Source of the DNA: an uncultured archaeon
GTDB lineage: Archaea; Iainarchaeota; Iainarchaeia; Iainarchaeales; CSSED10-239
NCBI GenBank assembly: GCA_964591795.1
Contig: CAZQEL010000006.1
Location: 1-32,000 of the forward strand
Direction: 5' to 3'
DNA: 32,000 bases
Positions within the stretch are counted from its first letter, which is position 1. The number at the start of each line of letters is the position of its first letter. Under the pieces are notes generated by a model, which worked only from the letters and a program-made list of their open reading frames with translations, made no database searches and was not told the DNA's origin. Below, piece by piece: positions 1 to 30,964 of this stretch. The position numbers and the translations under genes are program-made.

Positions 1-106
1 AACGAGCAGTATGCTCGTTAAAAATGAACAAGATGTCCAGCGGACATCTTGAATAGGTGTAGTAGAATGTAATTTAGAAGTCAGTAGTGCAGCGCACGAC
101 TGACTT
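1..106 (+). other. Cluster of three GC-rich stem-loops with 3-nt loops (1-19, 29-51, 78-106), immediately upstream of the DGR avd-like gene
   Basis: AACGAGCA-gta-TGCTCGTT (8 bp). CAAGATGTCC-agc-GGACATCTTG (10 bp). AAGTCAGT-a-GTGC-agc-GCAC-g-ACTGACTT (12 bp with one A/G mismatch). They are perfect or near-perfect complements and stand out in an AT-rich background. Function is inferred, not shown. Confidence 0.6.
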
Positions 107-108
107 TA

Positions 109-149
109 TAAAAATAAATTTTGATTGAAAAAAATTAAATTTATTTTTA
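109..149. repeat. AT-rich inverted repeat (12-bp arms AAAAATAAATTT / AAATTTATTTTT, 15-nt spacer) upstream of avd-like gene
   Basis: Arms at 110-121 and 137-148 are exact reverse complements. The same arm core AAAATAAATTT recurs in a second inverted repeat at 638-680. Confidence 0.5.
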
Positions 150-183
150 AAAATAAAAAATAAACAAAAAAAACAAAATAAAC

Positions 184-558
184 ATGAACCACGATAACCT
201 TAAAATCTATAAAACCGCACTAGATTTAGTAGTTTATTTTGAAAAAATTGTTTTTAATTTTGATAAATATCATAAATATGCAATAGGAATTGATTTAAAA
301 AATAAAGCTAGACAAATATCTTTAAAAGTAATTAGAGCAAACACATCTAAATCAAAGTCAATCGAAATTCAAGAAATGCTAATATTAATTGAAGAATTAA
401 AATTTTTAATAAGATTATGTAAAGAAATAAATGGTTTTAAAAATAAAAATTCTTATTCATATTCTTCAAAATTATTAACTACTCTTGAAAACCAAGCAAT
501 AACTTGGAAATTATACTCGCAAAAGCGAGAACAAACAGAAGAAAATCTAGAATTGTAA
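184..558 (+). CDS. avd: Avd-like DGR accessory protein (four-helix-bundle, 23S rRNA intervening-sequence protein family)
   Basis: 124 aa, predicted all-helical. The N-terminal pattern LKIYKTALDLVVYFEKIV..FDKYHKYAIGIDLKNKARQISLKVIRAN is typical of the S23/Avd family. It lies directly upstream of the TR and DGR-type RT in the canonical avd-TR-RT order. Confidence 0.7.
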   Translation: MNHDNLKIYKTALDLVVYFEKIVFNFDKYHKYAIGIDLKNKARQISLKVIRANTSKSKSIEIQEMLILIEELKFLIRLCKEINGFKNKNSYSYSSKLLTTLENQAITWKLYSQKREQTEENLEL

Positions 559-637
559 AGGTTATCTTAAAATAATTATTTACAAGCGTGATTTAATTTA
601 TGGTGATAGAAGGCACCAATAGGTAGTTTAACATCAC

Positions 638-680
638 TAAAATAAATTTTACTTTTTTTTTAAAAGATAAATTTATTTTA
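638..680. repeat. AT-rich inverted repeat (12-bp arms TAAAATAAATTT / AAATTTATTTTA, 19-nt T-rich spacer) immediately upstream of candidate TR
   Basis: Arms at 638-649 and 669-680 are exact reverse complements. It shares the AAAATAAATTT core with the 109-149 repeat. Confidence 0.5.
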
Positions 681-681
681 A

Positions 682-807
682 AAAAGATCTTCTATAAACG
701 ACACAACCGAGTATAGCTCGTCCAATGCATATAAAATCAATATGAATAATGGAAATATCAACAATAACAATAAGAGCAATAACAACAATGTGCGTTGTGT
801 TCGCGAA
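682..807 (+). other. Candidate DGR template repeat (TR); boundaries approximate
   Basis: The frame is open from the stop at 679-681 and encodes KRSSINDTTEYSSSNAYKIN-MNNGNINNNNKSNNNN-VRCVRE. 11 of the 16 codons at 742-789 are AAY. The stretch ends in GC-rich GTGCGTTGTGTTCGCG. RT homology only begins after this. No VR is available in the window to fix the ends. Confidence 0.5.
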
Positions 808-2259
808 CATAAATTTACTTTCAAAGAGATTTATAAAGCATATCTTTCTTGTAGAAAAAACAAAAGAAATACTATTAATGCTTTAAAATTTGAAATTAAT
901 TTAGAAAGTAATTTACATGAGTTGGTTTATGTTTTAAATAATAAAACATACTTTCCAACTCGTTCTGTTTGTTTCTCTATAAAAGATCCTAAACCAAGAG
1001 AGGTTTTTGCAGCTGATTTTAAAGATAGGATTGTTCATCATGTTATTTATAATCATCTAAACCCTATTTATGAAAAAATATTTATATTTGATTCATTTGC
1101 TTGTAGAAAAGGAAAAGGAACTTTAAAAGCTGTAAAAAGATTACAATCTTTTACTTGTAAAATTACTAAAAATCAAACTAAAAAATGTTTTTATCTTCAA
1201 TTAGATATTTTTAATTTTTTTATGAGTATAGATAAAAATATTCTTTATAATATCTTATGTAAAAAAATAAAAAATAAAAATATATTACATTTATTAAAAA
1301 CAGTTCTTTTTCACAATCCTATCAATGATTATGTACAAAAAGGTCCTAATTATAAACAACAAAAAGTGCCTTTTCATAAATCTTTATTTAATGTTGAAAA
1401 TGGAAAAGGTCTTCCAATCGGCAATTTAACTTCTCAGTTGTTTGCAAATATTTATTTAAATGAACTTGATCAATATTTAAAGCATATTTTAAAAATAAAA
1501 TATTATGTTAGATATGTAGATGATTTTGTAATTCTTGCTGATAATAAAAAAGAACTTTTATTTTATAAATCTAAAATTACTTTTTTTTTAAATGATGCTC
1601 TTTCTTTAAGATTTAAAGAATCTAATTTATTAGCTCCAATAACTAATGGTATTAATTTTGTTGGTTATATTATAAAACCAAAATATCTTCTTTCAAGAAA
1701 TCGTAATATTAAAAATATTTATAAAAAATTAAATTTATTTAAAAAAGAAAATATTAATTTAAACTACAAATATACTCTTTTTAAATATGATAATATCTCT
1801 AATTTGATAAATTCTTTAAATAGTTATTTTGGCTATTTAAAACACTCAATGTGTAAAAAAATCATTGAAAATATTATTTTAAAATATTCTTTTTTAAATT
1901 TTTATGTTTATTTTAATGAAAACAAAGTATTGAGTATCTTTAAAAACAATATTTTTGATTTTAAATCTCAGCATTTATTTTTTAAAAATAAATTTGAAAA
2001 TACTATCATTTTTTTAGATGTTAATTTATTTTTTAGAGTGCTTTCAGATGATGCTTTATTTATAAATAATTATTTTATGTCTAATCTTAAAAAAACTAAT
2101 AATTATGTTTTTGTTGATATTTATAAAAAAAATTATTTATTTATAATAAATAAATTAATCACTAAAAATAAGAATATTATTGTTACAACTCAAGTTAATG
2201 AAGGTAATTTAGTTTATAGACAAATATTATCTTTTTATTTTTTGAATAAAAATATTTAA
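742..2259 (+). CDS. DGR-type reverse transcriptase (RNA-directed DNA polymerase)
   Basis: RT motifs: PREVFAADFKDRIVHHVIY, FACRKGKGT, YLQLDIFNFFMSID, and LPIGNLTSQLFANIYLNELD (IGxxxSQ at 1417-1437, the DGR hallmark). Also YVRYVDDFVIL (YVDD at 1513-1524) and GINFVGYII. The first ~22 codons are probably TR rather than RT. An alternative in-frame GTG start is at 790. The C-terminal ~120 aa are low-complexity. Confidence 0.88.
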   Translation: MNNGNINNNNKSNNNNVRCVREHKFTFKEIYKAYLSCRKNKRNTINALKFEINLESNLHELVYVLNNKTYFPTRSVCFSIKDPKPREVFAADFKDRIVHHVIYNHLNPIYEKIFIFDSFACRKGKGTLKAVKRLQSFTCKITKNQTKKCFYLQLDIFNFFMSIDKNILYNILCKKIKNKNILHLLKTVLFHNPINDYVQKGPNYKQQKVPFHKSLFNVENGKGLPIGNLTSQLFANIYLNELDQYLKHILKIKYYVRYVDDFVILADNKKELLFYKSKITFFLNDALSLRFKESNLLAPITNGINFVGYIIKPKYLLSRNRNIKNIYKKLNLFKKENINLNYKYTLFKYDNISNLINSLNSYFGYLKHSMCKKIIENIILKYSFLNFYVYFNENKVLSIFKNNIFDFKSQHLFFKNKFENTIIFLDVNLFFRVLSDDALFINNYFMSNLKKTNNYVFVDIYKKNYLFIINKLITKNKNIIVTTQVNEGNLVYRQILSFYFLNKNI

Positions 2260-2537
2260 TTTATTTTTTTATAGTATATAATTTAGCTTATTTTAAATTT
2301 TTTTTTTATGTACACCTATTTATTATTATTATTGTGTTTATTTAATATTAGTGTTGTTATACATAAAAAGAATATCTTTTTAAGTAAATCGGTTCATAAA
2401 TAAATATAAGAAATCTATTTTTATAAGAGTTAAACTAGTTTATAGTGTTAATTTATGTTTTTTTTAAAAAACTACAAAACAGGATTGTAATATTTTATTT
2501 TTAAAATAAAATTATATACACAAAAAAATGATTAGAT

Positions 2538-3212
2538 ATGATAAATACAAAAGATATTATTGAAATGGAACTAATTTTAAAAGACGCTAATACAAAAGAA
2601 ATATTAGATACAACAAAAAAAGAAGTAGCAAAAGAACACGATTTAAATTTAAAACAAGAGTATAAACCTTTAAGTTATGTTTTTGGTACTGGGGAATTAT
2701 TAAAAGGTGTTGAAGAAAACATTAAAGATTTAGAAATTGGAAAAACAAAAACTTTTATGTTAAAAAAAGAAAATGCTTTTAAAGATAAAGATCCTTCTAA
2801 GGTTGAATTAATTTCTTCAAATGAATTTAAAAAAGAAAAAGTTAAACCTGCAATTGGTTTATTTGTAAATGTTGGTAACAGATCTGGAAAAATAGTAAGT
2901 ATATCCGGTGGAAGAGTAAAAGTTGATTTTAATCCAATTTTTGCAGGAAGAGACCTTGAATATACAATAACATTAAATAAAATAATTTCAAAGGATTCTG
3001 AAAAATTACCTTTACTTTTAGAAAAAGCATTTTATTTTATGCCAAAGGATAAATTAAAATTAAATGTACATGAAAAAGAACTAGAACTTGAAATGCCACT
3101 TGGTATTCCTCAAGAAATAGATTATTTTAAACAATTATTTACAAAAATGGTTTTTGAAACTACTAATTTTGAAAAATTAAAATTTACACAAGTATTTAAT
3201 AAAAAGAAGTAA
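2538..3212 (+). CDS. FKBP-type peptidyl-prolyl cis-trans isomerase (archaeal long type with IF insert)
   Basis: ILDTTKKEVAKEHDL, FGTGELLKGVEENIKDLEIGKTKTF, KENAFKDKDPSKVELISSNEF and GKIVSISGGRVKVDFNPIFAGRDLEYTI match the archaeal FKBP/SlyD pattern. Confidence 0.88.
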   Translation: MINTKDIIEMELILKDANTKEILDTTKKEVAKEHDLNLKQEYKPLSYVFGTGELLKGVEENIKDLEIGKTKTFMLKKENAFKDKDPSKVELISSNEFKKEKVKPAIGLFVNVGNRSGKIVSISGGRVKVDFNPIFAGRDLEYTITLNKIISKDSEKLPLLLEKAFYFMPKDKLKLNVHEKELELEMPLGIPQEIDYFKQLFTKMVFETTNFEKLKFTQVFNKKK

Positions 3213-3223
3213 GGTGAATTAAA

Positions 3224-3829
3224 TTGACTGATAAAACACTTAAGACAGGAACAACAACAGTTGGAATAATTTCTAAAGATAGTATCGTTCTTGCTGCAGA
3301 TATGCAAGCAACAATGGGTAATATTTCAGCTAATAATGGTATGACTAAAATATATAAAATAAGTGATTATATTGCAATGACAATTGCTGGTTCTGTTGGA
3401 GATGCTATGGTTCTAGTTCGTTATTTACAAAATCATGCTAATCTTTATGAACTTGAACATAAAAGATCATTAAGTACAAAGTCATGTGTTACTTTACTTT
3501 CAAATGTTTTAAATTCAAGTAAAATGATTCCATTTTATACTCAATTAATATTAGCTGGTTCAGATCATGAACTTTATTCTGTTGATTTTACTGGCGGATC
3601 TACTAAAGAAGAAAGCTTCGCGTTCTCTGGATCAGGGTCAGAACTTGCTTTAAGTATTATGGATAAAGGTTATAAATCAATAATTACTTCAAAAGATGCT
3701 ATTGATCTTGCAAAAGATGCTATTAACTCTGCTAAAAAAAGAGATATTTATACCGGTGGAGATGGTATTAAAATAGTTGTTATTAGTAAAGATGGTGTAG
3801 AAGAACTACCTATCGAGAAATATAAATAG
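3224..3829 (+). CDS. psmB: Proteasome subunit beta
   Basis: A short propeptide is followed by GTTTVGIISKDSIVLAADMQATMG (catalytic Thr). The TTG start is preceded by AAGGTGA. Confidence 0.93.
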   Translation: MTDKTLKTGTTTVGIISKDSIVLAADMQATMGNISANNGMTKIYKISDYIAMTIAGSVGDAMVLVRYLQNHANLYELEHKRSLSTKSCVTLLSNVLNSSKMIPFYTQLILAGSDHELYSVDFTGGSTKEESFAFSGSGSELALSIMDKGYKSIITSKDAIDLAKDAINSAKKRDIYTGGDGIKIVVISKDGVEELPIEKYK

Positions 3830-3980
3830 TTTTTTTTAAATAATTTTTAATTTTTTCATAATATTTTTTATAAGCATTTTTAAAAAAATATTATTCTTTT
3901 ACATTTTTTAAAATAAAAAATCTTTTTTACAAAGATAAATTATATAGGATAAAAAACAAACTAATTATAAGTGAATTAAT

Positions 3981-5873
3981 ATGGATTTATTTGACGAAAT
4001 AAAAAAGCAAATTTCAAATATGCTTAATGAAAAGAAAAAAGTTTTTTCAAAAATTGAGCCTGAGGGAGCAGAAATCGCAATATATACTGCAGACCCTTAC
4101 TCTTATTTTAATAATAAAACAATTGTTGGTGAAATTGCAGAAAAATTTAAAAAAAGAATAAATATTAGAACTGATAAAAGTGTTTTAATGGATTCTGCAG
4201 AAGCATACAACAAAATAAAAGAAATTGTGCCTAATGACGCTGGTATTAAATCAATTGCATTTGATTCTGTTTTTTCAGAAGTAGTAATTGAAGCTGAAAA
4301 ACCAGGTGTTGTAATTGGTAAACTTGGAGATGTTTCAAAAGAAATAATTAGAGAAACAAAATGGATTCCAAAAATATTAAGAGCACCACTTGAACCTTCT
4401 GAAATTATTAAAAAAATAAGAGGGTATGCAATTAAAAATAATTCAGAAAGAAAACAATTTTTAAAAGAAATTGCTAAAAAAATATATTCTCCTCCAGTAA
4501 GTACAAAAGATTGGGTAAGAGTAACCGCTCTTGGTGGATTTAGAGAAGTTGGAAGAAGTGCTATTCTTTTAGAAACTCCCGATACAAAAATTTTACTTGA
4601 TTGTGGTATTAATCCTGCAGATAAAAATGAAGAAACACCTTATTTTGGAGTAATTAGATTTCCATTAGAAGAGCTTGATGCAGTTGTTATTACACACGCA
4701 CACATAGATCACGTTGGTTTCTTACCCTATTTATTTAAAGTAGGTTATAGAGGACCAGTATATTGTACTGAACCTACTAAAGATTTAATGGCTCTTTTAC
4801 TTCTTGATGCTATTAAAGTTTATGAAAAGAATGGACGTGAACCACTTTACGGTGAAGAAGATGTTAAGGAAGTAATTAAACATGCAATTACTAAAAATTT
4901 TAGAGAAGTAACAGATATTGCTCCAGGAATAAGATTAACTTTCCATGGTGCATCTCACATTTTAGGTTCTGCATCTGCTCATTTGCATATTGGTGATGGT
5001 AAACAAAATTTAGTTTATTCTGCTGATATTAAATATGGATTTACAAGACTTTATAATAACATGGATGCTAAATATCCTAGAGTTGACACTTTAATTTTAG
5101 AAAGTACTTATGGTGGTAAACCACTTAATCCTTCTAGAAATAAATCCGAAGATCATTTAATAGAAATTTTAAATGAAACCTATGATAAAGGTGGAACAAC
5201 TTTAATTCCTGTTTTCTCAGTTGGTCGTGCTCAAGAGGTTATGATTGTTCTTGAAGATTATTTTAGACGTGGTAAATTAAAATCTGATAATGTTTTTATT
5301 GATGGTATGACTCGTCAAGCTTCTTTAATTCACACAGTATATCCTGAATATTTAAAACAAAATATTAAAACTAGAGTTTTACAAAATAATTCTCCATTTT
5401 CATCAAAATTATTTAAGTCTGTTGATTATGAAGAAAATAGTCGTGAAAATGTTTTAAAAACAAAAGGAGCTATAATAGTTGCTTCATCAGGTATGTTAAC
5501 TGGTGGTCCTTCTGTGTCCTATTTTAATGAACTTGCAGATAATCCTGATAACTCAATGGTTTTTGTAGGGTATCAAGCAAAAAATAGTTTAGGTAAAAAA
5601 GTACAAAAAGGTTTAAGATCAATTTTAATTAATGATTCTCATGGCAAACCAAAGACTTTACATATTAAATTAAGACTTGAAACAGTTGATGCATTTAGTG
5701 GTCATGCTTATCGTCAAGAACTTTTAAATTACATAACAAGTTTAAACCCTAAACCAAAAATAATTTTAATAAATCACGGAGATTCATGTCAAGAGTTTGC
5801 AAAATTCGTATCTAAAAAATTTCATATTAATACATTAGCAATACAAAATTTAGAAAGTGTAAGATTGAGATAA
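3981..5873 (+). CDS. aCPSF1: aCPSF1 / FttA-type beta-CASP ribonuclease with N-terminal KH domains
   Basis: 630 aa. N-terminal KH-like region (VIGKLGDVSKEI), metallo-beta-lactamase HAHIDHVG motif, beta-CASP region, and C-terminal SGHA..LINHGD. Confidence 0.9.
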   Translation: MDLFDEIKKQISNMLNEKKKVFSKIEPEGAEIAIYTADPYSYFNNKTIVGEIAEKFKKRINIRTDKSVLMDSAEAYNKIKEIVPNDAGIKSIAFDSVFSEVVIEAEKPGVVIGKLGDVSKEIIRETKWIPKILRAPLEPSEIIKKIRGYAIKNNSERKQFLKEIAKKIYSPPVSTKDWVRVTALGGFREVGRSAILLETPDTKILLDCGINPADKNEETPYFGVIRFPLEELDAVVITHAHIDHVGFLPYLFKVGYRGPVYCTEPTKDLMALLLLDAIKVYEKNGREPLYGEEDVKEVIKHAITKNFREVTDIAPGIRLTFHGASHILGSASAHLHIGDGKQNLVYSADIKYGFTRLYNNMDAKYPRVDTLILESTYGGKPLNPSRNKSEDHLIEILNETYDKGGTTLIPVFSVGRAQEVMIVLEDYFRRGKLKSDNVFIDGMTRQASLIHTVYPEYLKQNIKTRVLQNNSPFSSKLFKSVDYEENSRENVLKTKGAIIVASSGMLTGGPSVSYFNELADNPDNSMVFVGYQAKNSLGKKVQKGLRSILINDSHGKPKTLHIKLRLETVDAFSGHAYRQELLNYITSLNPKPKIILINHGDSCQEFAKFVSKKFHINTLAIQNLESVRLR

Positions 5874-5876
5874 AAT

Positions 5877-6371
5877 ATGCATATAATAATTACAGGTTCG
5901 GTTGCATCAGGTAAAACCACTATTGCAAATGAATTAAAAAGAAGAATATCTTTTCCAAAATTTATTGTGGTTAACGATAAGGTGTTTGCACAAGAACATA
6001 ATTTAGGTATATTTAATAAAGAAACTGGGGAATATGAAGTTGATGTTATTTTATTTTCAAGAAAAATATCTGAATTTGTTAAATCTAAAAAAAATGTTAT
6101 TTTTGAAGGTCATTTATTTTGTGAATTACAAAAGTTTCTTCTTATGAAAATAAATTATGTTTTTGTTTTAAAAAATTCTGAAAAATTTTTAAGAGATGCA
6201 ATGAAAGAAAGAGGATATAATGTTTTAAAAATTGAAGAAAATATTCTTTGTTTTAAAACAAATTATTTTGAAAAAAAATTTAATAAAAAACACATTAATT
6301 TTATAACTATTCAAGCCACTAAAGATCTTAAACTTAATGTTAATAAAATAAATAAATATTTAAAACTCTAA
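5877..6371 (+). CDS. P-loop nucleotide kinase (adenylate kinase/Fap7-like)
   Basis: N-terminal Walker A (IIITGSVASGKTTIANEL) and a small 164-aa size. Family assignment is tentative. Confidence 0.55.
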   Translation: MHIIITGSVASGKTTIANELKRRISFPKFIVVNDKVFAQEHNLGIFNKETGEYEVDVILFSRKISEFVKSKKNVIFEGHLFCELQKFLLMKINYVFVLKNSEKFLRDAMKERGYNVLKIEENILCFKTNYFEKKFNKKHINFITIQATKDLKLNVNKINKYLKL

Positions 6372-6384
6372 AATGTGATATGAT

Positions 6385-7209
6385 ATGGTTCAAGCATTAG
6401 TTATAGCAAAAACACAAACTGTTAAAGAAATTAAAAAGATATCTAGTATTAAAAGAAGAAATAAATTAATATTTAAATTTTTAGCAATAATTATAATTGT
6501 ATTTTTAATTGCTTTATTACTAAATAAACTAGTTATTGAAAATAGATATTCATTTACTGATAAAAAAACAAATATTTATTTTAAATCAAATAATTTTCAT
6601 ATTAAAGAAGGATTTGATGTATTTTCAAAAGATGTAAACTACACTATTGTGTTTAATTCATTATATTCTGATCAAACTTATTTGTCATCAGTAACAGAAG
6701 GTCTTGTTTTTTTTCAATCAATGTTACATGCAAAAAATAAAAATGTTATTTTAATTATATCTTTAAGTGATGAAAACAATAATTTAATTTCTTGTCAATC
6801 AAATCTTGGTAATATTTATGAAAATAAAGAACTTACAAAGGATGAGTGTTTAATATTAATCAAAAGTGATCGTTCAACTATAATGGTTGATTATCCTTAT
6901 GAAAGTTATATTAATTCAAATGTTTTATTAAATGTATCTGAAAAGTTACTTATAATTAAACCAAGTAAAGCTGAAGATGTTTATGCTTCTCTTTCATTAA
7001 TTTCAAATCAAATGTTTTCTGATTCTGAATTTATAAAGAGTACAATTTTAGATATCCAAAATAAAGTAAACGATAGTAGTAATTTAGATGTTAACAAAAA
7101 TTTAGATGTCAGTACTAATTTAGATATTAATACTAGTTTTGAAGATATTAATACTTTTTTTGATTCAAATATTTCTGATTTGAATACATTTAATGATATT
7201 AATAGTTAA
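6385..7209 (+). CDS. Hypothetical membrane-anchored protein with C-terminal NLD(V/I) repeats
   Basis: One N-terminal hydrophobic segment (LIFKFLAIIIIVFLIALLL). No recognisable domain. Confidence 0.5.
   Translation: MVQALVIAKTQTVKEIKKISSIKRRNKLIFKFLAIIIIVFLIALLLNKLVIENRYSFTDKKTNIYFKSNNFHIKEGFDVFSKDVNYTIVFNSLYSDQTYLSSVTEGLVFFQSMLHAKNKNVILIISLSDENNNLISCQSNLGNIYENKELTKDECLILIKSDRSTIMVDYPYESYINSNVLLNVSEKLLIIKPSKAEDVYASLSLISNQMFSDSEFIKSTILDIQNKVNDSSNLDVNKNLDVSTNLDINTSFEDINTFFDSNISDLNTFNDINS
7081..7134 (+). repeat. Three in-frame 18-bp imperfect tandem repeats (NLDVNK / NLDVST / NLDINT)
   Basis: aatttagatgttaacaaa / aatttagatgtcagtact / aatttagatattaatact, read directly from the sequence. Confidence 0.8.
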
Positions 7210-7278
7210 TTATTTTATTTTTAAAATAATTACTATTTACAATTCAATTTATATTATTTATGCTACAATATTATATCT

Positions 7279-8649
7279 ATGACTTCAATTGGATTTGATA
7301 AATCAAAGCTTTCTGTTTTTAAACAAACAAGAAAAGAACTTATAAAAGAAATTAAACCTAGTAGTGCTCAGATTATCAAAGAAAAGAATTTTATAGATAA
7401 TATTACTAAGAAAATAGAAAAAATGCCTGGAAGTCATTTATATGCAGTTGTTGCAGGGTCTTTTGGAAAAGGAACTCAATTAAAGGATAAAAAAGATTTT
7501 GATGTGTTTGTAATTTATCCACCTTCATTAGAAAAAGATAAATTTGTAGAAGAAGGTCTTAGTTTAGGTCAAAAGGTGTTTAAAGGTAATTTTTGGGAAA
7601 AAGCTTATTCTCAACATCCTTACATAAGAGGGATAATAAATGGGCATAAGGTTGAAATTGTTCCAGCTTATAAAATTGAACCAAATGAACCAATTATTTC
7701 TGCAGTTGATAGAACTGTTTTACATTTAATGTTTGTGCTTAAAAACATGTCTGAAATTCAAAAAGATGAAACTCGTCTTTTAAAATATTTTATGCAGTAT
7801 GTTGGTTGTTATGGAGCTGATACATCTGTATCTGGTTTTTCTGGATATTTATGTGAATTATTAATTTTATTTTATGGCGATTTTGAAACCGTTATTGAAA
7901 AAGCAGCAAACTGGGAAGGTGCTATTAAGTTTACTTTACTTAAAGAACAACATGTTAATTTAGCTAGATTTTCAGATTCATTAGTAGCAATTGATCCTAT
8001 TGATGATAATAGAAATGTTGCTTCAGCCGTAAGTTTAAAACAAATGAGTTTATTTATTTCAGCATCTCGTTCTTTTTTAGAAAATCCGTCAATGGATTTT
8101 TTTAGGCCTAAAAATAATAGACAAGTTACCTATCATCAATTGATTGGAAAATTAGATAATTTTTCTATGGCAATAATTAGATTTGATGTTAGAGATTTAC
8201 TTAAAGAAATTGTTTGGTCTAAAGTTAAAAGTAGTACTAAAAAATTAATTGCACATTTAGAATTTTCAGACTTTGATGTATTAAAATATGATGTGTATCA
8301 TAAAGAGGGTCAAGACAAATGTTATTTATTAATTTTATTAGATACTTTAGAGCTTCCTAAATTTAAAAAAATAATTGGACCATTAGTTTCAGATTATAAA
8401 AGTTCTCAAAACTATCTTTCAAACAATAGATCAGTTTTAGGGCCATATATTAAGGATGATCGTTGGTATGTTATTCGTAAAAGATATAAAACTTTAGCAA
8501 AATCAATTATTCAAGAGTTTTCTATAAGTTTTGATTTAAAATCAAATGTATATGTATCAAATGAAATTAATGATTTATTTTTAGAAGATGATGAATTGGC
8601 AATTTGTTTGTCTGATTTTTTTGTTTCAAAGGAAAAATTTTTAATATGA
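7279..8649 (+). CDS. cca: CCA-adding enzyme (archaeal class I tRNA nucleotidyltransferase)
   Basis: GSFGKGTQLKDKKDFDVFV nucleotidyltransferase signature, followed by HPYIRG...VEIVPAY and DRTVLH. The 456-aa size is typical. Confidence 0.9.
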   Translation: MTSIGFDKSKLSVFKQTRKELIKEIKPSSAQIIKEKNFIDNITKKIEKMPGSHLYAVVAGSFGKGTQLKDKKDFDVFVIYPPSLEKDKFVEEGLSLGQKVFKGNFWEKAYSQHPYIRGIINGHKVEIVPAYKIEPNEPIISAVDRTVLHLMFVLKNMSEIQKDETRLLKYFMQYVGCYGADTSVSGFSGYLCELLILFYGDFETVIEKAANWEGAIKFTLLKEQHVNLARFSDSLVAIDPIDDNRNVASAVSLKQMSLFISASRSFLENPSMDFFRPKNNRQVTYHQLIGKLDNFSMAIIRFDVRDLLKEIVWSKVKSSTKKLIAHLEFSDFDVLKYDVYHKEGQDKCYLLILLDTLELPKFKKIIGPLVSDYKSSQNYLSNNRSVLGPYIKDDRWYVIRKRYKTLAKSIIQEFSISFDLKSNVYVSNEINDLFLEDDELAICLSDFFVSKEKFLI

Positions 8650-9308
8650 CATCCAGAACTCCAAATGTAGATATAGCAAATAAATATAAAGAAATTATTA
8701 CTAAATTTAAATTACCTAAAGGATATTCTATTTCATTTCCTGATAAACATGTTTTTCCTGATGGATATGTAACTTCTAAAAGAAGCTTTACACCTATTAT
8801 TGCATTAAATTTTAATGAAGAAAGAATTGCTTTACTTAAGTTTAGTGTTGTTAAAAAGAAAACACATTTAAGTTATGTTCAAGGGGTTAAAAATAAATTA
8901 AAAGTGCATCCTGAATGGATTGATTTTTTACTTGAACCTTTTATTTTTACTGGCATTGTTATTTATGGTTCTGCTTCTAAATTTAAAGATAATTTTTTAT
9001 TTACAGGTTTTAATGAGTCTAAAAAATCTTTAAATAATACAATTGCTTTGTATGAATGTAATATTAAATATATTAAAGATAAAAATAAAAAAATTAATCT
9101 TGAACGTAATTTAGAAATAAGTAAAGCCAAAGTTTCCTTATATTCTAAAATTAGAGATAAATATTTTGATAAAAATGGTGCTCTTAATCTTTCTAAAGAA
9201 AGAATTAAACATTTAGATACTATTTATTCTCAAGTAAAAACTAAGCCTAATTTTACAATTTATAAAGAACATAGAAAAAGACCACTTATTAAACATTTTA
9301 GAAAATAG
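8646..9308 (+). CDS. Hypothetical basic protein, translationally coupled to cca (ATGA overlap)
   Basis: 4-nt overlap with the cca stop. No recognisable motif. Confidence 0.5.
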   Translation: MTSRTPNVDIANKYKEIITKFKLPKGYSISFPDKHVFPDGYVTSKRSFTPIIALNFNEERIALLKFSVVKKKTHLSYVQGVKNKLKVHPEWIDFLLEPFIFTGIVIYGSASKFKDNFLFTGFNESKKSLNNTIALYECNIKYIKDKNKKINLERNLEISKAKVSLYSKIRDKYFDKNGALNLSKERIKHLDTIYSQVKTKPNFTIYKEHRKRPLIKHFRK

Positions 9309-9469
9309 TTTTTTATTATGTATTCTTTAACTAATTAATAGTAATTTAGATTTTTTTAACTTTTTAAAGAGTGGTTTGTTAATTGGTACGTTATTATAAG
9401 TTTTAATGTACTTTTTAATACATTTAATTGGAGTATATATATATATTCTTGCTAAGTGTAATATATAAT

Positions 9470-9655
9470 GGATTTGAGACCTTTAGAAAAATCCTAATAA
9501 AATGGTTGTCAGGTGAGTTTTTTCATCTAGGAGGTGGTGTTTGAAAGTATGACGATAACTAACAAAAACGATAGTTAGGGAAGTAAACTTTAACCAGGTT
9601 TGAATGGAAAACTAAGGCAATATGTGACTTCCCTATCTTCAATAAATCTTTTTTT
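9470..9655 (+). ncRNA. Candidate structured small RNA of unknown class
   Basis: Non-coding in all frames and locally GC-enriched. TATA-like run (tatatatatatatt, 9435-9448) lies about 25 nt upstream. Stems: GGATTT/AAATCC (9470-9495) and TAGGGAAGT/ACTTCCCTA (9576-9584 with 9627-9635). It ends in a T7 run at 9649-9655. An internal T6 at 9518-9523 could split it into two transcripts. Confidence 0.35.
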
Positions 9656-9754
9656 AATATTTTTTAATGTTTGTTTATTTTCTCTATTTTCTATAAGCTT
9701 TATATATCTTTTCTATATATAGTATATAGTAATGTAAAATTTGTCATCTAAATA

Positions 9755-9836
9755 GCAGAGGTGGCGGAGTGGTCAAACGCGCCAGCCTTGAGAGCTGGAG
9801 CCTCGTGCTACATGGGTTCGAATCCCATCCTCTGCG
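9755..9836 (+). tRNA. tRNA-Ser (anticodon UGA), class II with long variable arm
   Basis: Acceptor GCAGAGG/CCTCTGC. Anticodon stem CCAGC/GCTGG with loop CT-TGA-GA. Variable arm AGCCTCGTGCTAC. T arm ATGGG-TTCGAAT-CCCAT. Discriminator G. No encoded CCA. Followed by a T7 run. Confidence 0.93.
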
Positions 9837-9866
9837 CTTTTTTTAATTAATTTAAATTGTGATTTT

Positions 9867-10199
9867 ATGATTAAGGAAAATATTACTTATAATGAATTTA
9901 TGAAATTAGATATTAGAATTGGAACTATTGTAGAAGCAAAAGTAGTTGAAGGTTCTGATAAATTATTAAAATTAATATTAGATTTTGGAGAATTTAAAAA
10001 GCAAATAATAGCAGGTATAAAAACAAAATATCAACCATCAGATGTAATTGATAAACAAATTCCTGTGATTATAAACTTAGAACCAAGAAGACTTATGGGT
10101 TTTTTAAGTGAAGGTATGATATTAGGGGTTGGAGATAAAACTCTTGATGCTTTATTAATTCCTTCTGAATCTGTGGTAGATGGTAGCTTAGTTCACTAA
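9867..10199 (+). CDS. tRNA-binding domain protein (Trbp111/CsaA/EMAPII-like OB fold)
   Basis: FMKLDIRIGTIVEAKVVEGSDKLLKLILDFGE...QIIAGIK...NLEPRRLMGFLSEGMIL is the characteristic tRNA-binding domain pattern. Confidence 0.85.
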   Translation: MIKENITYNEFMKLDIRIGTIVEAKVVEGSDKLLKLILDFGEFKKQIIAGIKTKYQPSDVIDKQIPVIINLEPRRLMGFLSEGMILGVGDKTLDALLIPSESVVDGSLVH

Positions 10200-10224
10200 T
10201 TTTTTTAATTATATAGTTTATTAT

Positions 10225-10306
10225 GCAGAGGTGGCGGAGTGGTCAAACGCGCAAGCCTGGAAAGCTTGAGCCTCGTGCTACGCGAGTTCGAATCTCGTCC
10301 TCTGCG
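10225..10306 (+). tRNA. tRNA-Ser (anticodon GGA), class II
   Basis: Same acceptor, D arm and variable arm as the 9755 gene. Anticodon stem CAAGC/GCTTG with loop CT-GGA-AA. T arm GCGAG-TTCGAAT-CTCGT. Differences from the paralog are compensatory in the stems. Confidence 0.93.
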
Positions 10307-10320
10307 CTTATTTTTAATTA

Positions 10321-10830
10321 TTATAATTTTCCAAGTTTTGATGGTCTTTTAAACACCATTGATTTGTGTGCTGAAAATCTAGTTAAGTTCATAACTAAAT
10401 CCGCAGTTAATTTTGCAAAGATTGCTGGAAATTTAGCAAATTCAACAAGTCCAATCACCATTATGAAAATAAAAATTACTGTTGAAAAATTAATTATGTA
10501 ATATCTTGTGAAAGAAAATAAGTTTTTTTTAGAAAAAGTTTTACTTTCATCTTTAAATACAAATTTTTTATGTAAATTGTAGTTTACAAATGTTTTTATA
10601 AAATCAGAGAAGAAGGTTACTATAATATAATATAAATTTAGTGTATTTACAAAAGTATATATTAAGCCAACATCAACAAGGGTACCTATAAGACCTAATA
10701 CAGCATATTTAAAAAAACGTTTAATTCTATAAATTATAGAAAATGAAATAAACCAATAATATATTCTATAAATATAATGGTGTTTTTTTAATGTCACAAG
10801 AGAATGTGTAAAATCAGTTTTCGGTATCAT
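10321..10830 (-). CDS. GtrA-family membrane protein
   Basis: FFKYAVLGLIGTLVDVGLIY..., NYNLHKKFVFK and ...NLTRFSAHKSMVFK form the four-TM GtrA-like repeats. Confidence 0.7.
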   Translation of the reverse strand: MIPKTDFTHSLVTLKKHHYIYRIYYWFISFSIIYRIKRFFKYAVLGLIGTLVDVGLIYTFVNTLNLYYIIVTFFSDFIKTFVNYNLHKKFVFKDESKTFSKKNLFSFTRYYIINFSTVIFIFIMVIGLVEFAKFPAIFAKLTADLVMNLTRFSAHKSMVFKRPSKLGKL

Positions 10831-15306: not shown

Positions 15307-16224
15307 GTGATTAGTATGAATTATAGATTAGCTTTAATTATTTTATTAGTGTTATTAATGACTCCATTTATCTTTTCAGATATTTCTTTAACTATAGATG
15401 GTTCATTAAATAATTTTTATATTTCAAATAATTCTTCAAAAAATGTACCTATTAATCTTATTTCTGATTATTCTGGGTCATTTGGTAATAATTTAAGAGC
15501 AGAATATACTTTAGATTCTTTTTCTACTTTAAATAATTTAGAAGTTAGTTTATCTAAAAAAGAGGAATATTTTCTATCTAATGTAAACTCTCAAATTTCA
15601 TTAAATATAAGATCATATAGATTTAATGATCAAAAAATAAAATTAAAAATTAAAGCTTCATTATTTGATGTTTATAATAATCTTTTAGATTCTAGTTATA
15701 TTTATGTTGATTTAATTTCAAATAATTCTGAATATGATTTTTCAGGAAGTCCAAAAAATAAAGTTCCAGAATATAAGGGTTATTCTTTATCTAAAAAAAA
15801 ACTATTAATTTTAAATCAATTAGATAGTGATAAAATTACTATTACAAACCATATTGATAATAAAATTTCTTATGGTACAAAATGTTCTGTAGATAAAGAA
15901 GGATTAATTTTAAATTTAAGATATATAGGAAATAACCAATATTCTTTAAGGGTTAGTATTGATCAAAATAAGTTTGTTGATAAAGATATTTTTACAATTA
16001 ATTGTGTAGCTTATTATAGAGAAAATAATTTTACTATTAAACCAATTAATGTAATATATTTAAATCAAGATTTAAATTTACCTTTAGAAACTGTAATTAA
16101 GGAAGATGAATATTTAAATCAAGATTTAAATTTATCTTTAGAAACCGTAATTAAGAAAGATGAGATTAAAAATAGCGCTATTAAAGATTTTTTTAATAAA
16201 ATATTAATTAAACTAAAAAGTTAA
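15307..16224 (+). CDS. Hypothetical secreted/surface protein with signal-peptide-like N-terminus
   Basis: N-terminal hydrophobic stretch LALIILLVLLMTPFIFS. Asn/Ser-rich. Contains a tandem 18-aa duplication near the C-terminus. Confidence 0.55.
   Translation: MISMNYRLALIILLVLLMTPFIFSDISLTIDGSLNNFYISNNSSKNVPINLISDYSGSFGNNLRAEYTLDSFSTLNNLEVSLSKKEEYFLSNVNSQISLNIRSYRFNDQKIKLKIKASLFDVYNNLLDSSYIYVDLISNNSEYDFSGSPKNKVPEYKGYSLSKKKLLILNQLDSDKITITNHIDNKISYGTKCSVDKEGLILNLRYIGNNQYSLRVSIDQNKFVDKDIFTINCVAYYRENNFTIKPINVIYLNQDLNLPLETVIKEDEYLNQDLNLSLETVIKKDEIKNSAIKDFFNKILIKLKS
16057..16164 (+). repeat. Two tandem 54-bp in-frame repeats (YLNQDLNLPLETVIKEDE / YLNQDLNLSLETVIKKDE)
   Basis: 16057-16110 and 16111-16164 differ at only a few positions, read directly from the sequence. 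Confidence 0.9.
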
Positions 16225-21214: not shown

Positions 21215-21835
21215 ATGGCATATAAAATACAAAATTTAGTTGCATCTAGTAATTTAGAAACAACTTTAGACCTTTATAATCTTGCAGCTGCAATTCCAGA
21301 TGTAGAATATGAACCAGAGCAATTTCCTGGTGCAATATTTAAAATCAAAGAACCTAAAGTAACATTACTTTTATTCAAAAATGGAAAATTAATTATTTCT
21401 GGAGCTTCAACTGAAGACGATATTATTGCAGGTATTAAAAAAGCAACGAAATTAATTAATGAAATTCAAAAAGAAGTTAAAATTAAAAAAGCAGTAAATT
21501 ATACAATTGTAAATTTAGTTGCTACTTCAAATCTTAATAGACCAGTTGATCTTTTCCAAGCTGCAGTAACATTAGATGATATTGAATATGAACCAGAACA
21601 ATTTCCTGGTGCAATAATAAGAATTCATAATCCTAAAGTTACAATTTTACTTTTTAAGAATGGTAAAATGATTTGTGCAGGTGCAAAATCAGAAGGGGAC
21701 ATTAAAAAAAGTATTACTGCTGTTAAAAAATTACTTGCAGATAATAATTCAAACACAGAAGAAACACTTAATGTTAAGAAAGAAAAGAAAAAACCTGTTA
21801 AAAAAAATAAACTAATAAAAACAAAGGGTATTTAA
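21215..21835 (+). CDS. tbp: TATA-box-binding protein with lysine-rich C-terminal tail
   Basis: Two direct TBP repeats (IQNLVASSNL...YEPEQFPGAIFKI...LLLFKNGKLIISGA and IVNLVATSNL...YEPEQFPGAIIRI...ILLFKNGKMICAGA). AGGTGAT Shine-Dalgarno-like motif upstream. Confidence 0.95.
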   Translation: MAYKIQNLVASSNLETTLDLYNLAAAIPDVEYEPEQFPGAIFKIKEPKVTLLLFKNGKLIISGASTEDDIIAGIKKATKLINEIQKEVKIKKAVNYTIVNLVATSNLNRPVDLFQAAVTLDDIEYEPEQFPGAIIRIHNPKVTILLFKNGKMICAGAKSEGDIKKSITAVKKLLADNNSNTEETLNVKKEKKKPVKKNKLIKTKGI

Positions 21836-21856
21836 ATATTATCATTCATAATTAAT

Positions 21857-21976
21857 ATGTTAGCGGCCATAGGGATGGAGAAACACCTGGACCCTTTTCG
21901 AACCCAGAAGTTAAGTCTATTGCCGTTTTTATTTGCTGTTAGTTCTTGCTAGCTGCGATATTAAAGCTGCTAACAT
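21857..21976 (+). rRNA. rrf: 5S ribosomal RNA (not linked to 16S/23S in this window)
   Basis: Terminal helix ATGTTAGCGGC / GCTGCTAACAT. Conserved core CCATAGGGATGGAGAAACACCTGGACCCTTTTCGAACCCAGAAGTTAAG. T-runs downstream. Confidence 0.9.
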
Positions 21977-27687: not shown

Positions 27688-28185
27688 ATGAATTTACCAG
27701 TATCAAAACCAATGGTTACAAATGTATTTTTAGATATGATAGAACCAGATAAATTATTACTTGATTTAAATCAAAAATTTTTTACTGGTTTTTTATATCT
27801 TGTAGCCAATACTGAATATCATTTTGAAGAAAATATTATTTTTATTTTAAAAGGTAATATTATAGGTTCAATTTATTTGAATAGTTTTTATAATATTGAA
27901 CTTTTCGGAAAAACTGCTCTAAATCTAAATTTTAATTCCTTAGGATATAAAAAAGGTGTATTAAATATTTATGAGCTTTCAAGTGAACAGTTAAAATTAG
28001 TTTTAATTTTTAATGATAAAATTAAATGTGATTATAAGTTAAATAAAAAGAAAATTTCAAAACAAACTTTTGTTTTTAATCCTGCTTTATTTGGTAGTAT
28101 TTTAAGAAATAAATTTCCAGATAGAATAAAAGCAAAATCAGATTTGTTTGATGAATTTAATATAAATGAACTTTTAAGGTATTAA
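27688..28185 (+). CDS. Hypothetical protein, tentatively DUF4388/PATAN-like
   Basis: Pattern FTGFLYLV ... IIFILKGNIIGSIY ... FGKTALNLNF ... GVLNIYELS resembles the DUF4388 consensus. This is a weak, motif-level call only. Confidence 0.35.
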   Translation: MNLPVSKPMVTNVFLDMIEPDKLLLDLNQKFFTGFLYLVANTEYHFEENIIFILKGNIIGSIYLNSFYNIELFGKTALNLNFNSLGYKKGVLNIYELSSEQLKLVLIFNDKIKCDYKLNKKKISKQTFVFNPALFGSILRNKFPDRIKAKSDLFDEFNINELLRY

Positions 28186-28187
28186 GC

Positions 28188-28628
28188 ATGAATAGAATAT
28201 TTGCAAGTATGTTAACAAAACTTTCAAACAAAGTTTTAAATTTAGAGGATTTAAGAACTCCTAAAGAATTGGAACCATTATTAGAATATAGGGCTGTTAA
28301 TTTGTGTTCTAAAAATTTAGATGATTTTTTATTAAAATTAAGAAAAAAACATTTAGTTAATCATATAATAATTACTGATCTTGAAGGCATTGTAATAGCA
28401 AGTACTGAAAAAGATTTAAAAGAAGGATTTAAAAGTGCTGCAATGTATAATTATATTAATACTGAAATAAAAGATTTAAGTATTATTTTAATAGAATCAA
28501 AAGGTTGGAACATAATATTTAAATATAGTGACAAGGTATATTTTATTAAAGCAAATGATAGTTTAAGTAGAACTGAAGTTTATGCTATTGTTAATGATCT
28601 TGAAAATTATTTAAAAGTAATAAAGTGA
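28188..28628 (+). CDS. Hypothetical protein, tentatively Roadblock/LC7-like
   Basis: VNHIIITDLEGIVIASTEKD...SAAMYNYI...LSIILIESKGWNIIFKY...VYFIKAN follows the Roadblock/MglB-like pattern. Overlaps the minD ORF by 4 nt. Confidence 0.35.
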   Translation: MNRIFASMLTKLSNKVLNLEDLRTPKELEPLLEYRAVNLCSKNLDDFLLKLRKKHLVNHIIITDLEGIVIASTEKDLKEGFKSAAMYNYINTEIKDLSIILIESKGWNIIFKYSDKVYFIKANDSLSRTEVYAIVNDLENYLKVIK

Positions 28629-29698: not shown

Positions 29699-30673
29699 AT
29701 GATTTTAAATATTTTTACTGATTTGTTTAATAATTTTAGTTCAAATATATCTTCTGATTTATATAATGCACTTCCTTTAAACTTCATATTTTTTGTAATT
29801 ATTTTAATTTTCGGATTAAGTATTTATTTAGTATTTTCATTTCTAATTTTACCATTATTTAAAAGATCTCCAGTGAAACTTTATAAAAAATATCTTTCTC
29901 TAAGATATGAAATGAAAAGAATTGATGATGCCTATTCTGCAAAAAAAATAATTTTTGAGGAATATGTTTCTATGCAATTTTTAAATGCTCAAGAATATTA
30001 TCATATTGTTAAATTATTAGCTGACAATCCTGAGTTTAAATCAAAACTTAAAGGGTATACTTTAAAAGATAATTTTGATAGATCATCAACTAAATCTAGT
30101 TATTCTTCGCCTGCAGTTAAATTAACTTCACAGGACATTGAACGAAAACAAATTAACAAGCTTTGTACGGTATTAAAACCAAAAGCTTTAATTTATTCTA
30201 AGGAAGATATTTATGCAATTTTACTTTCTGAGGGATTTAGCAATAATTTAATTGAATCTGTAATTAAAGAATTAATAAATCAAAATGTAGTTTTTTCTAA
30301 AGTTGCTTCGTCAACTGCTGGAAAAAAAGATTTATCTTTATTCCTAGATAATTTATTTGAAAGTAAGATAGACAAATCAAAAACTGTTAATAAAGAAAAT
30401 GATATTTCAAGCGTGATGAATAATACATCTGCTGAACATCATGGCTTGTTTGAAAACGATTTTAAAAGAAAGGAACTTAATTTTGATAAAGTAGAAGATG
30501 TTGATTATACATTTAAGTCAGATGTTTCTTTAGAAAATAAAAAATTTAATTTTTTCAAAAGAATTTTTTCTATTTTTAAAAAGAAAGAAGCATCAGTACC
30601 TAAACCAACAATTACAGAAATAGATGATATTCTTAAAAATATTGAATCTGAAATTAAAGGAAAAGAATTTTAA
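29699..30673 (+). CDS. Hypothetical protein with one N-terminal TM segment
   Basis: FIFFVIILIFGLSIYLVFSFLILPLF, then a soluble charged region. No recognisable motif. Confidence 0.5.
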   Translation: MILNIFTDLFNNFSSNISSDLYNALPLNFIFFVIILIFGLSIYLVFSFLILPLFKRSPVKLYKKYLSLRYEMKRIDDAYSAKKIIFEEYVSMQFLNAQEYYHIVKLLADNPEFKSKLKGYTLKDNFDRSSTKSSYSSPAVKLTSQDIERKQINKLCTVLKPKALIYSKEDIYAILLSEGFSNNLIESVIKELINQNVVFSKVASSTAGKKDLSLFLDNLFESKIDKSKTVNKENDISSVMNNTSAEHHGLFENDFKRKELNFDKVEDVDYTFKSDVSLENKKFNFFKRIFSIFKKKEASVPKPTITEIDDILKNIESEIKGKEF

Positions 30674-30825
30674 TCTCTTCTTTCATTAATAAGAAGTATT
30701 ATTCCAATAATTATAAGTATAAGGCCTAAATATACATTTAATTTAGATAAAATTCCTGGTAAATCAGGAATATACATTCCAATTCCTATGCCCATTATAA
30801 TTCCACTAGCAAGTGCTTTACCCAT
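30670..30825 (-). CDS. Possible small hydrophobic protein (51 aa), below the ORF-track length cutoff
   Basis: Hand translation: MGKALASGIIMGIGIGMYIPDLPGILSKLNVYLGLILIIIGIILLINERRD. It has two hydrophobic segments. It fills an otherwise empty gap and is convergent with the preceding gene. Confidence 0.3.
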   Translation of the reverse strand: MGKALASGIIMGIGIGMYIPDLPGILSKLNVYLGLILIIIGIILLINERRD

Positions 30826-30964
30826 ATTTTTAAAACTCCTGTGTTTTCTAAATAAATTTATTATTTATAATTTCATATATTATCATAAGGTTTTTAAATT
30901 AATTTAGTTGTAAGTTCTAACTAAAAGAGATTGTTTTTATTCTTTTCCTACTTATATAATAAAT

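Follow-up and report, generated by a model that had tools for sequence, protein, structure and literature searches.

Evidence for a complete chromosomal diversity-generating retroelement, with a MutS-like domain fused to its reverse transcriptase, in a Diapherotrites/Iainarchaeota-like archaeon

The first 2259 nt of a 32,000-nt stretch of DNA from an uncultured archaeon (contig CAZQEL010000006.1 of GenBank assembly GCA_964591795.1, positions 1–32,000; hereafter the window, G+C 23.8%) carry a reverse transcriptase (RT) gene, a small upstream gene and an adenine-rich segment, which a first-pass annotation read from the letters as the core of a diversity-generating retroelement (DGR) without its variable repeat (VR). 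Such a truncated cassette raises the question of whether it is the visible part of a complete element, the remnant of a decayed one, the passenger of a virus, or an RT of another kind beside a coincidental repeat. We conclude, with a probability of roughly 90%, that positions 1–2259 belong to a complete chromosomal DGR of a Diapherotrites/Iainarchaeota-like DPANN archaeon, of which they make up the 3′ three-quarters. All DGR components are present at the locus, in the order target, three hairpins, avd (accessory variability determinant), structured spacer, template repeat (TR) and RT fused to a MutS domain I (MutS_I), and all features of the locus given by window position lie on the forward (+) strand. 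DGRs in DPANN archaea are known, and the statement of the first-pass annotation that the class is not new was upheld: the locus adds a well-resolved further example and no new category, and its fused MutS-like (Msl) module, triple hairpin and coding-embedded RNA scaffold are variations within the known DGR kind.

An open reading frame (ORF) scan returned the two proteins announced by the first-pass annotation, of 124 aa (184–558) and 505 aa (742–2259). The larger one matches RVT_1 (E = 5.5e-17); its start is uncertain (ATG 742 or GTG 790), its residues 1–20 are encoded by the TR and disordered in the predicted model, and the RT fold spans residues ~25–395. The motif LPIGNLTSQ occupies RT residues 224–232, of which IGNLTSQ takes residues 226–232 (1417–1437), and the YVDD box residues 258–261 (1513–1524), exactly at the positions first assigned to them. 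In a sequence search of the PDB (phmmer), the best match was the Bordetella phage DGR RT 8ub7 (E = 1.3e-38), followed by the group II intron RT GsI-IIC (E = 4.7e-11). Likewise, Foldseek on an AlphaFold model computed with 32 homologues (pLDDT 88.4) placed 8ub7 first, with E = 1.2e-23, a template modelling (TM) score of 0.89 and a root-mean-square deviation of 2.5 Å, ahead of group II (TM 0.67), G2L4, DRT9, DRT2 and retron RTs. Motifs, PDB search and predicted fold thus uphold the DGR-type assignment, and the RT does not group with retron, group II intron or Abi RTs.

The TR, of 101 nt, extends over positions 706–806, possibly 705–808, which corrects the extent of 682–807 proposed previously. 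Adenines make up 43 of its 101 bases, and 40 of these 43 stand at codon positions 1 and 2. The avd–TR–RT order and the A/AAY-rich segment reported in the first-pass annotation are real, but the TR is not cleanly intergenic, the final 65 nt of it being shared, in frame, with the RT ORF. This in-frame read-through into the RT ORF is common to most of the 32 aligned homologues. Within the 32-kb window, a 24-mer scan that allowed any base opposite TR adenines recovered no second TR copy, and GTGCGTTGTGTTCGC occurs at 790–804 with no second occurrence when up to 3 mismatches are tolerated, both scans confirming that the core has no VR inside the window.

The missing part of the element lies just beyond the contig edge. 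An exact-protein look-up with Avd yielded six metagenome contigs, which were used to extend the window upstream. Contig L001 (4,030 nt) matches the window without differences across the shared 2,005 nt, window position 1 corresponding to L001 2026. It carries a direct repeat of window 706–806 at L001 1906–2006 (119 to 19 nt before the window), located at the end of a 641-aa ORF whose stop codon stands 12 nt upstream of window position 1, the VR itself ending 19 nt upstream of it. The prediction of a target just upstream of position 1 was therefore borne out, as was that of a near-copy of the TR differing from it at adenines: TR and VR are 82% identical, with 18 mismatches over 101 nt, of which 17 are at TR adenines and one at C783.

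Seven contigs of the strain, originating from several samples, share one identical TR, avd and avd–TR spacer, while carrying four VR alleles whose polymorphic sites are almost all opposite TR adenines (28 of 29). The strain is present in the samples ENA ERZ27316756 and ERZ27315937, JGI 3300031601, 3300022871, 3300039186 and 3300039187, and SRR8862237 and SRR7527650. None of the four alleles has a stop codon in the VR; 24 codons are variable, giving ~10^23 possible peptides, and just two codons are able to mutate to a stop. Because the VR alleles differ at TR adenines while the TR is invariant, the element appears to have been recently active, the alleles bearing the signature of mutagenic retrohoming in the recent past. 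A metagenome-wide DNA pattern scan for further TR/VR copies returned no contig beyond those already known. Six relatives at 60–80% RT identity share the cassette, and five of them (L008, L009, L013, L015 and L020) possess their own adenine-specific TR/VR pairs; in the sixth, L019, which has no readable pair, the VR is lost at the contig end. A contig of the JGI collection (L017) carries the VR, avd, RT, FKBP, proteasome and FttA on a single molecule. The public NCBI assembly places the RT on a contig of 37,953 nt and, on another of 2,080 nt, a target protein from the same 90%-identity cluster; this break beside the VR was probably caused by VR heterogeneity in the population, and DGR hypervariability can therefore hide targets from scans based on windows or metagenome-assembled genomes (MAGs). 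L001 and L002, which are otherwise identical, differ by four clustered substitutions at L001 1799–1803 (GTTGCGGAT versus GCTAATGAT), ~100 nt upstream of the VR and outside the TR homology.

The target ORF (L001 88–2013, upstream of the window; 641 aa) includes the VR as its last ~36 residues. Its C-terminal ~130 residues match Lcl_C/DUF1566 (aa 511–639, 48.8 bits for a cut-off of 34.9) and contain the VR, which would accordingly sit in a C-type-lectin-type fold. Four 255-nt tandem repeats (L001 619–1638) encode PKD-like domains (PKD, 33.6 bits). The N-terminus, MFLKFKKSISPLIATILLVVVAVAVIG..., matches that of the pilin UpsA (E = 2.8e-5), scores only 14.8 bits against PF07790, and shows the motif K-(A/S)-(I/V)-(S/E/T)-P-(L/I)-(I/V)-(A/T)-x-I-L-(L/I)-(I/V)-V-V-(A/V)-V, kept in 6 orthologous targets. 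The length of these targets varies between 283 and 641 aa, so that strains differ in how long a stalk separates the pilin-like N-terminus from the variable tip. Judging from these domains, the target is probably a type IV pilin-like, PKD-repeat surface protein, serving as an adhesin for host or substrate contact. Archaeal DGR targets have mostly been reported to lack domains, transmembrane or otherwise, that can be recognised (Roux et al. 2021), unlike those of this clade with their pilin-type N-terminus and PKD repeats. Here the architecture is readable: a variable lectin tip is carried on a PKD stalk behind a pilin-type signal. It suggests a surface adhesin that is hypervariable, in keeping with the host-attached life of these tiny archaea.

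The 124-aa protein encoded upstream of the TR (184–558) has an isoelectric point of 9.3, typical of Avd (Wu et al. 2017). Its membership of the Avd family, suggested in the first-pass annotation, is supported by transitivity through its homologues: PF22296 is matched by all nine aligned homologues encoded beside related RTs (best E = 1.3e-13), and two of the more distant homologues, whose precomputed PF22296 hits are not marked 'weak', share 47% and 34% identity with the window protein. This assignment rests on Pfam and NCBIfam profiles, since PDB searches gave no match with either the single sequence or a 9-sequence profile.

Two kinds of DNA element frame the repeats. The GC-rich terminus of the TR (790–812), resembling an IMH* (IMH, initiation of mutagenic homing), contains the palindrome GTTCGCGAAC, which forms a hairpin at 795–812 and is broken in the VR, where it reads GTTCGCGACC. 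The TR ends in ...GCGAACA and every VR in ...GCGACC; in the window strain and in 4 of the 6 relatives, GTGCGTTGTGTTCGCGA is common to TR and VR and is followed by A in the former and C in the latter, the exceptions being L015, whose VR has T, and L020, whose TR terminus differs by one base. The palindrome of the TR and its broken form in the VR appear to constitute the IMH*/IMH distinction. The second kind consists of three hairpins that come after the VR, not after the TR. H1 (1–24) has a core stem pairing 1–7 with 13–19 and an extended stem whose 5′ end is 5 nt before the window; it starts ~14–19 nt past the end of the TR/VR homology, the range reported for DGR hairpins and cruciforms being 4–34 bp. 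H2 (29–51) combines a 10-bp stem with an invariant CC-AGC-GG apex, and H3 (79–105) a C-AGC-G apex with a T-rich tract behind it. Folded together as single-stranded DNA, H1–H3 reach −36.5 kcal/mol (z = −9.3).

Structure comparisons were made over 7 loci, that is, the window strain and its six orthologues (at least 60% RT identity), and all three hairpins are kept in 7 of 7. H1 displays variable loops and compensatory stem changes throughout these loci, H2 compensatory changes at three stem positions, and H3 a stem whose sequence is wholly different between subclades around an unchanged C-AGC-G apex. Known DGRs possess a single GRNA-loop hairpin (Guo et al. 2011). Within related loci totalling 159 kb, CC-AGC-GG-type hairpins are restricted to the post-VR intergenic region; viral DGR loci totalling 580 kb contain none. 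Such hairpins seem to be specific to this clade. A link between these hairpins and the MutS_I fusion was also considered and rejected: of two more distant RT–MutS_I loci, the bacterial L104 lacks them behind its first VR, and L105 shows a lone GAA-loop hairpin. Right behind H3, TTTATAAA (105–112) is a candidate archaeal TATA box for an avd–TR–RT transcript; a promoter and terminator scan, whose sigma-70 models are bacterial and the host archaeal, re-found only H2, on the minus strand.

At the RNA level, the TR is enclosed by a predicted long-range duplex, whose 5′ strand (527–540) lies inside the 3′ coding end of avd, in the codons of the Avd C-terminal tail, and whose 3′ strand (963–977) covers the RT codons of a near-invariant R-S-V-C-F. 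RNAalifold on the 7 loci gives 14 bp, with one pair covarying between A-U and G-C at two synonymous positions. L105 and L104, which are more distant, have the same pairing with compensation at the third codon positions of Val and Cys, and in L104 it extends to 17 bp at −39.8 kcal/mol, a value reached by none of 300 shuffles. This arrangement matches the 'cPRT Stop' duplex between upstream and downstream segments, observed in the Bordetella ribonucleoprotein and predicted in 207 of 278 Avd-containing DGRs (Handa et al. 2024). Both strands of the closing duplex are protein-coding here; as the TR reads through in frame into the RT ORF, no non-coding sequence separates TR from RT. A crude duplex-versus-shuffle test for a comparable avd:RT-codon duplex gave no signal in 64 viral loci, with a median z of −0.8 over 73 loci.

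Inside this duplex, the avd–TR spacer (559–705, 147 nt) forms a separate, strongly conserved element. A hairpin across the avd stop codon (553–585) pairs TTGTAAA (553–559) with TTTACAA (579–585) and shows three compensatory pairs in L019; it is followed by a spacer RNA element (607–694) composed of an outer helix (608–613/688–693), a short helix (615–617/622–624) and a long hairpin (638–657/661–680). For the spacer alone, RNAalifold on the 7 loci revealed double changes at 6 pairs versus 0–2 in slid controls, and 98.7% of cells paired versus ~50%. Over positions 520–985, aligned with the six orthologues, compensatory (double) changes occur at 12 pairs versus 1–3 in slid controls, 97.5% of cells are paired versus 40–50%, and 0 of 500 shuffles reach the observed values; as the structure was derived from the same alignment, the paired fractions are inflated, but the double changes are not. 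Except for the closing helix, all covarying helices are upstream of the TR. No Rfam family matches the RNA elements of the locus.

The RT carries at its C-terminus (aa 408–505; 1963–2259) a fused, Msl-like MutS domain I. Taken in isolation, this segment matches PF01624 with 24.2 bits for a cut-off of 20.6; the family is matched by 29 of 30 homologous RT C-termini and is present in 64 of the 120 best RT homologues. In the PDB, a profile of these C-termini matches residues ~13–118 of the Taq and E. coli MutS proteins (E = 6e-12 to ~1e-11); from 1.8 billion representative proteins it returned 9,364 matches, among them genuine MutS, RT fusions (~500 aa) and Msl-like proteins (~120 aa) that stand alone. 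Wu et al. (2017) describe Msl as a free-standing accessory gene and, for the RT fusion, report no more than a weak similarity in three RTs. The profile also matches giant proteins unrelated to RTs, with two to four tandem MutS-domain-I-like modules (P0251, 2,323 aa; P0298, 6,471 aa; P0254; P0292). In addition, in the Proteobacteria MAG locus L104, a 1,351-aa Lcl_C-containing protein (6638–10693) is encoded directly downstream of the RT–MutS_I gene and may be a second DGR target.

Several observations weigh against the reading of this locus as a complete and recently active DGR. The four VR alleles stem from different assemblies and not from reads of one sample, and one TR/VR difference is not at an adenine, namely C783 to T (window 783, L001 1983), which is confined to the alleles of L001 and L002, C being retained in the two others. 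The own scores of Avd are below the cut-offs, both for PF22296 (bAvd; E = 1.1e-5, 26.3 bits, cut-off 40) and for NF033474 (DivGenRetAVD; E = 4.8e-8, 33.2 bits, cut-off 80). The target scores 20.7 bits against TIGR02537, the N-terminal model of archaellins and type IV pilins, on aa 1–61, for a cut-off of 20, and 15.9 bits over the full protein. Concerning the RNA, the closing duplex alone is not significant in such an AT-rich window, being matched by 12 of 500 and 1 of 300 shuffles, and its z is only −1 to −3 in close relatives, its support consisting of conservation and three covarying positions; the helices within the RT coding region show no double changes. Finally, the Phe-X-Glu mismatch-binding motif (GxFYE) is not conserved in the MutS_I of the window, which reads N-L-F-F-R, with the Phe kept and the Glu replaced by Arg. 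The closest relatives have (F/Y)(F/Y)R at this site, while bacterial-type members of the RT family keep G-x-F/Y-Y/F-E, and a role in mismatch recognition is therefore doubtful in this clade.

Part of this would suit a decayed or orphan DGR whose TR/VR differences are fossils, with no present diversification: VR variation is known from assembled contigs rather than as read-level polymorphism, the MutS_I has lost its Glu, and one difference escapes the adenine rule. We hold such decay to be highly improbable in view of an RT ORF that is intact, with all catalytic motifs and a confidently predicted fold, of a TR, avd and spacer that are identical while the four VR alleles differ almost only at TR adenines and never contain a stop codon, and of cis RNA and DNA structures maintained through compensatory changes. 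Scarcely more credit, as a still improbable explanation, can be given to a cassette belonging to an integrated virus or mobile element, with a viral receptor-binding protein as target. More than 586 viral contigs of IMG/VR do encode relatives of the RT at 39–50% identity, and the cassette occurs in varied neighbourhoods among related archaea, sometimes beside toxin–antitoxin genes. These viral relatives, however, have neither the MutS_I domain nor the CC-AGC-GG hairpins, the GC content of the cassette is not distinctive, and its target bears a cellular pilin-type signal sequence. Moreover, the 30 kb downstream hold housekeeping genes only (FKBP, proteasome, FttA, CCA enzyme, TBP, L21e, 5S rRNA, AglB), with no capsid, terminase or integrase gene; these context negatives cover the right flank, the known sequence upstream of the target gene amounting to 87 nt.

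An RT of group II intron, retron, Abi or DRT type, standing beside a coincidental repeat, would account for the best named NCBIfam model, group_II_RT_mat, which scores 106.7 bits (far below its cut-off of 300), and for weak Drt3a and Drt2 matches. This possibility, which we regard as having practically no chance of being correct, is refuted by the adenine pattern of the TR/VR pair, the PDB sequence search and the fold comparison: the best solved relative is, by sequence and by fold alike, a DGR RT, with a margin in E-value of over 25 orders of magnitude, and the adenine-specific pair is accompanied by an adjacent Avd and a lectin-fold target. Furthermore, motif 4 reads IGNLTSQ and not QGxxxSP, and searches of Rfam, at gathering thresholds as well as at E ≤ 1, turned up neither a group II intron nor a retron RNA.

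For the complete chromosomal DGR that we favour, a working scheme may be proposed. The avd–TR–RT unit would be transcribed, probably from the TATA-like box at 105–112, and the RNA from ~527 to 977 would fold into a domain closed by the covarying duplex between the avd 3′ end and the 'RSVCF' codons of the RT. Holding the structured spacer (607–694) and the TR (706–806), this domain would correspond to the scaffold that envelops bRT–Avd in the Bordetella phage DGR. As homology and the mutation pattern suggest, RT–Avd would copy the TR into cDNA with misincorporation opposite adenines, and this cDNA would replace the homologous VR at the target 3′ end, with the GC-rich end GTGCGTTGTGTTCGCGA common to both repeats and the hairpins at window 1–105 presumably acting as guides, as in phage BPP-1. 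Up to 24 codons could be rewritten in the C-terminal lectin-fold domain of the target. The RT-fused MutS_I would be an in-cis equivalent of Msl and, speculatively, may act on the mismatch-rich cDNA:VR heteroduplex. One could further imagine that this module binds branched or mismatched target DNA, either the three-hairpin array or the heteroduplex, and marks the integration site or shields the heteroduplex from repair, which would define a variant of retrohoming in this clade and, more broadly, in RT–MutS_I fusions; we offer this idea tentatively and consider it rather unlikely. The change from Phe-X-Glu to Phe-X-Arg in archaea without canonical MutS/MutL may reflect a repurposing towards structure recognition.

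Comparison with the DGR prototype, mtd-avd-TR-brt of phage BPP-1, reveals both a shared plan and contrasted details. The order target, avd, TR and RT is the same, RT identity is 30%, and superposition of the model gives TM 0.89. In both systems, TR-to-VR differences are adenine-specific, the two repeats have a GC-rich 3′ end in common (IMH/IMH*), the VR is followed within a few bases by an inverted repeat, and RNA segments on either side of the TR pair into a duplex. By contrast, BPP-1 carries its element on a phage, whereas the locus here is chromosomal and archaeal. The equivalent of 'Sp' is RT coding sequence, since the TR runs in frame into the RT ORF, and a 147-nt structured spacer is found upstream of the TR instead. 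The single GRNA-tetraloop hairpin of BPP-1 is represented by three hairpins after the VR, two of them with AGC triloops, bRT has no extra domain where the RT here has a C-terminal MutS_I, and the target is a pilin-like protein with Lcl_C/DUF1566 instead of the tail fibre Mtd.

The Legionella-type DGRs with CLec2/DUF1566 targets (category d, architecture D; Wu et al. 2017) resemble this locus in having their VR in a DUF1566/Lcl_C-type lectin fold, and both Avd and a MutS-domain-I-like module, but their Msl is free-standing where the module is fused here to the RT C-terminus; in addition, the host here is archaeal and the MutS_I of the window is devoid of the Glu of Phe-X-Glu. The elements of Nanoarchaeota (DUSEL4) and ANMV-1 (Paul et al. 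2015; Handa et al. 2016) are likewise DPANN DGRs with lectin-fold variable proteins and trinucleotide-loop hairpins downstream of the VR. They differ by a single hairpin inside the target ORF, with a GRA loop in the Nanoarchaeota element (Paul et al. 2015), as opposed to three hairpins past the stop codon, two with AGC loops, and by IMH motifs that read TGGGGT/TGGAAT in those archaea.

A further parallel is provided by the type V pilus tip adhesin DGRs of Bacteroides (bioRxiv 10.1101/2024.11.15.621889), in which the distal ligand-binding domain of a pilus-associated protein is also diversified and some elements have Avd plus Msl. These DGRs involve bacterial type V pili, as against an archaeal type IV pilin-like signal here, and a free-standing rather than fused Msl, and their activity was measured experimentally whereas ours is deduced from metagenome-assembly alleles. 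In Bacteroides, mismatch repair by the host MutS counteracts retrohoming (bioRxiv 10.1101/2024.11.15.621889); given this suppression, the present locus offers a compact test case for the role of the Msl module, and equally for how an RNA scaffold forms around a TR with protein-coding flanks and for what post-VR hairpins recognise.

The best named relatives of the FttA/aCPSF1 encoded in the window are those of Ca. Iainarchaeum (76% identity) and of Diapherotrites MAGs (~57%), from which the host appears to be a DPANN-type, Diapherotrites/Iainarchaeota-like archaeon. Domain matches confirmed the FKBP and proteasome genes that the first-pass annotation had placed after the RT, and the remainder of the window codes for archaeal housekeeping functions, among them FKBP, proteasome beta, FttA/aCPSF1, CCA-adding enzyme, AglB, TBP, L21e, Rpo4, KsgA and Nre. 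The cassette is conserved but its neighbours differ in each relative (L013, L015, L019 and L020 compared with window 2259–6000), including a helicase with toxin–antitoxin genes, ThrRS with FtsZ, SecDF, and DUF1015 with DUF4349 and RHH-ParE; this suggests either a mobile cassette or extensive rearrangement of these genomes.

Elsewhere in the window, seven ORFs of 146–324 aa (within 6385–7209, 8646–9308, 15307–16224, 27688–28628 and 29699–31627) are without a Pfam match at E ≤ 0.001, something typical of DPANN genomes. The TBP gene is followed by a lone 5S rRNA gene (21859–21975) in the region 21215–21975, and two tRNA-Ser genes with UGA and GGA anticodons surround a small ORF with a tRNA-binding domain at 9755–10307.

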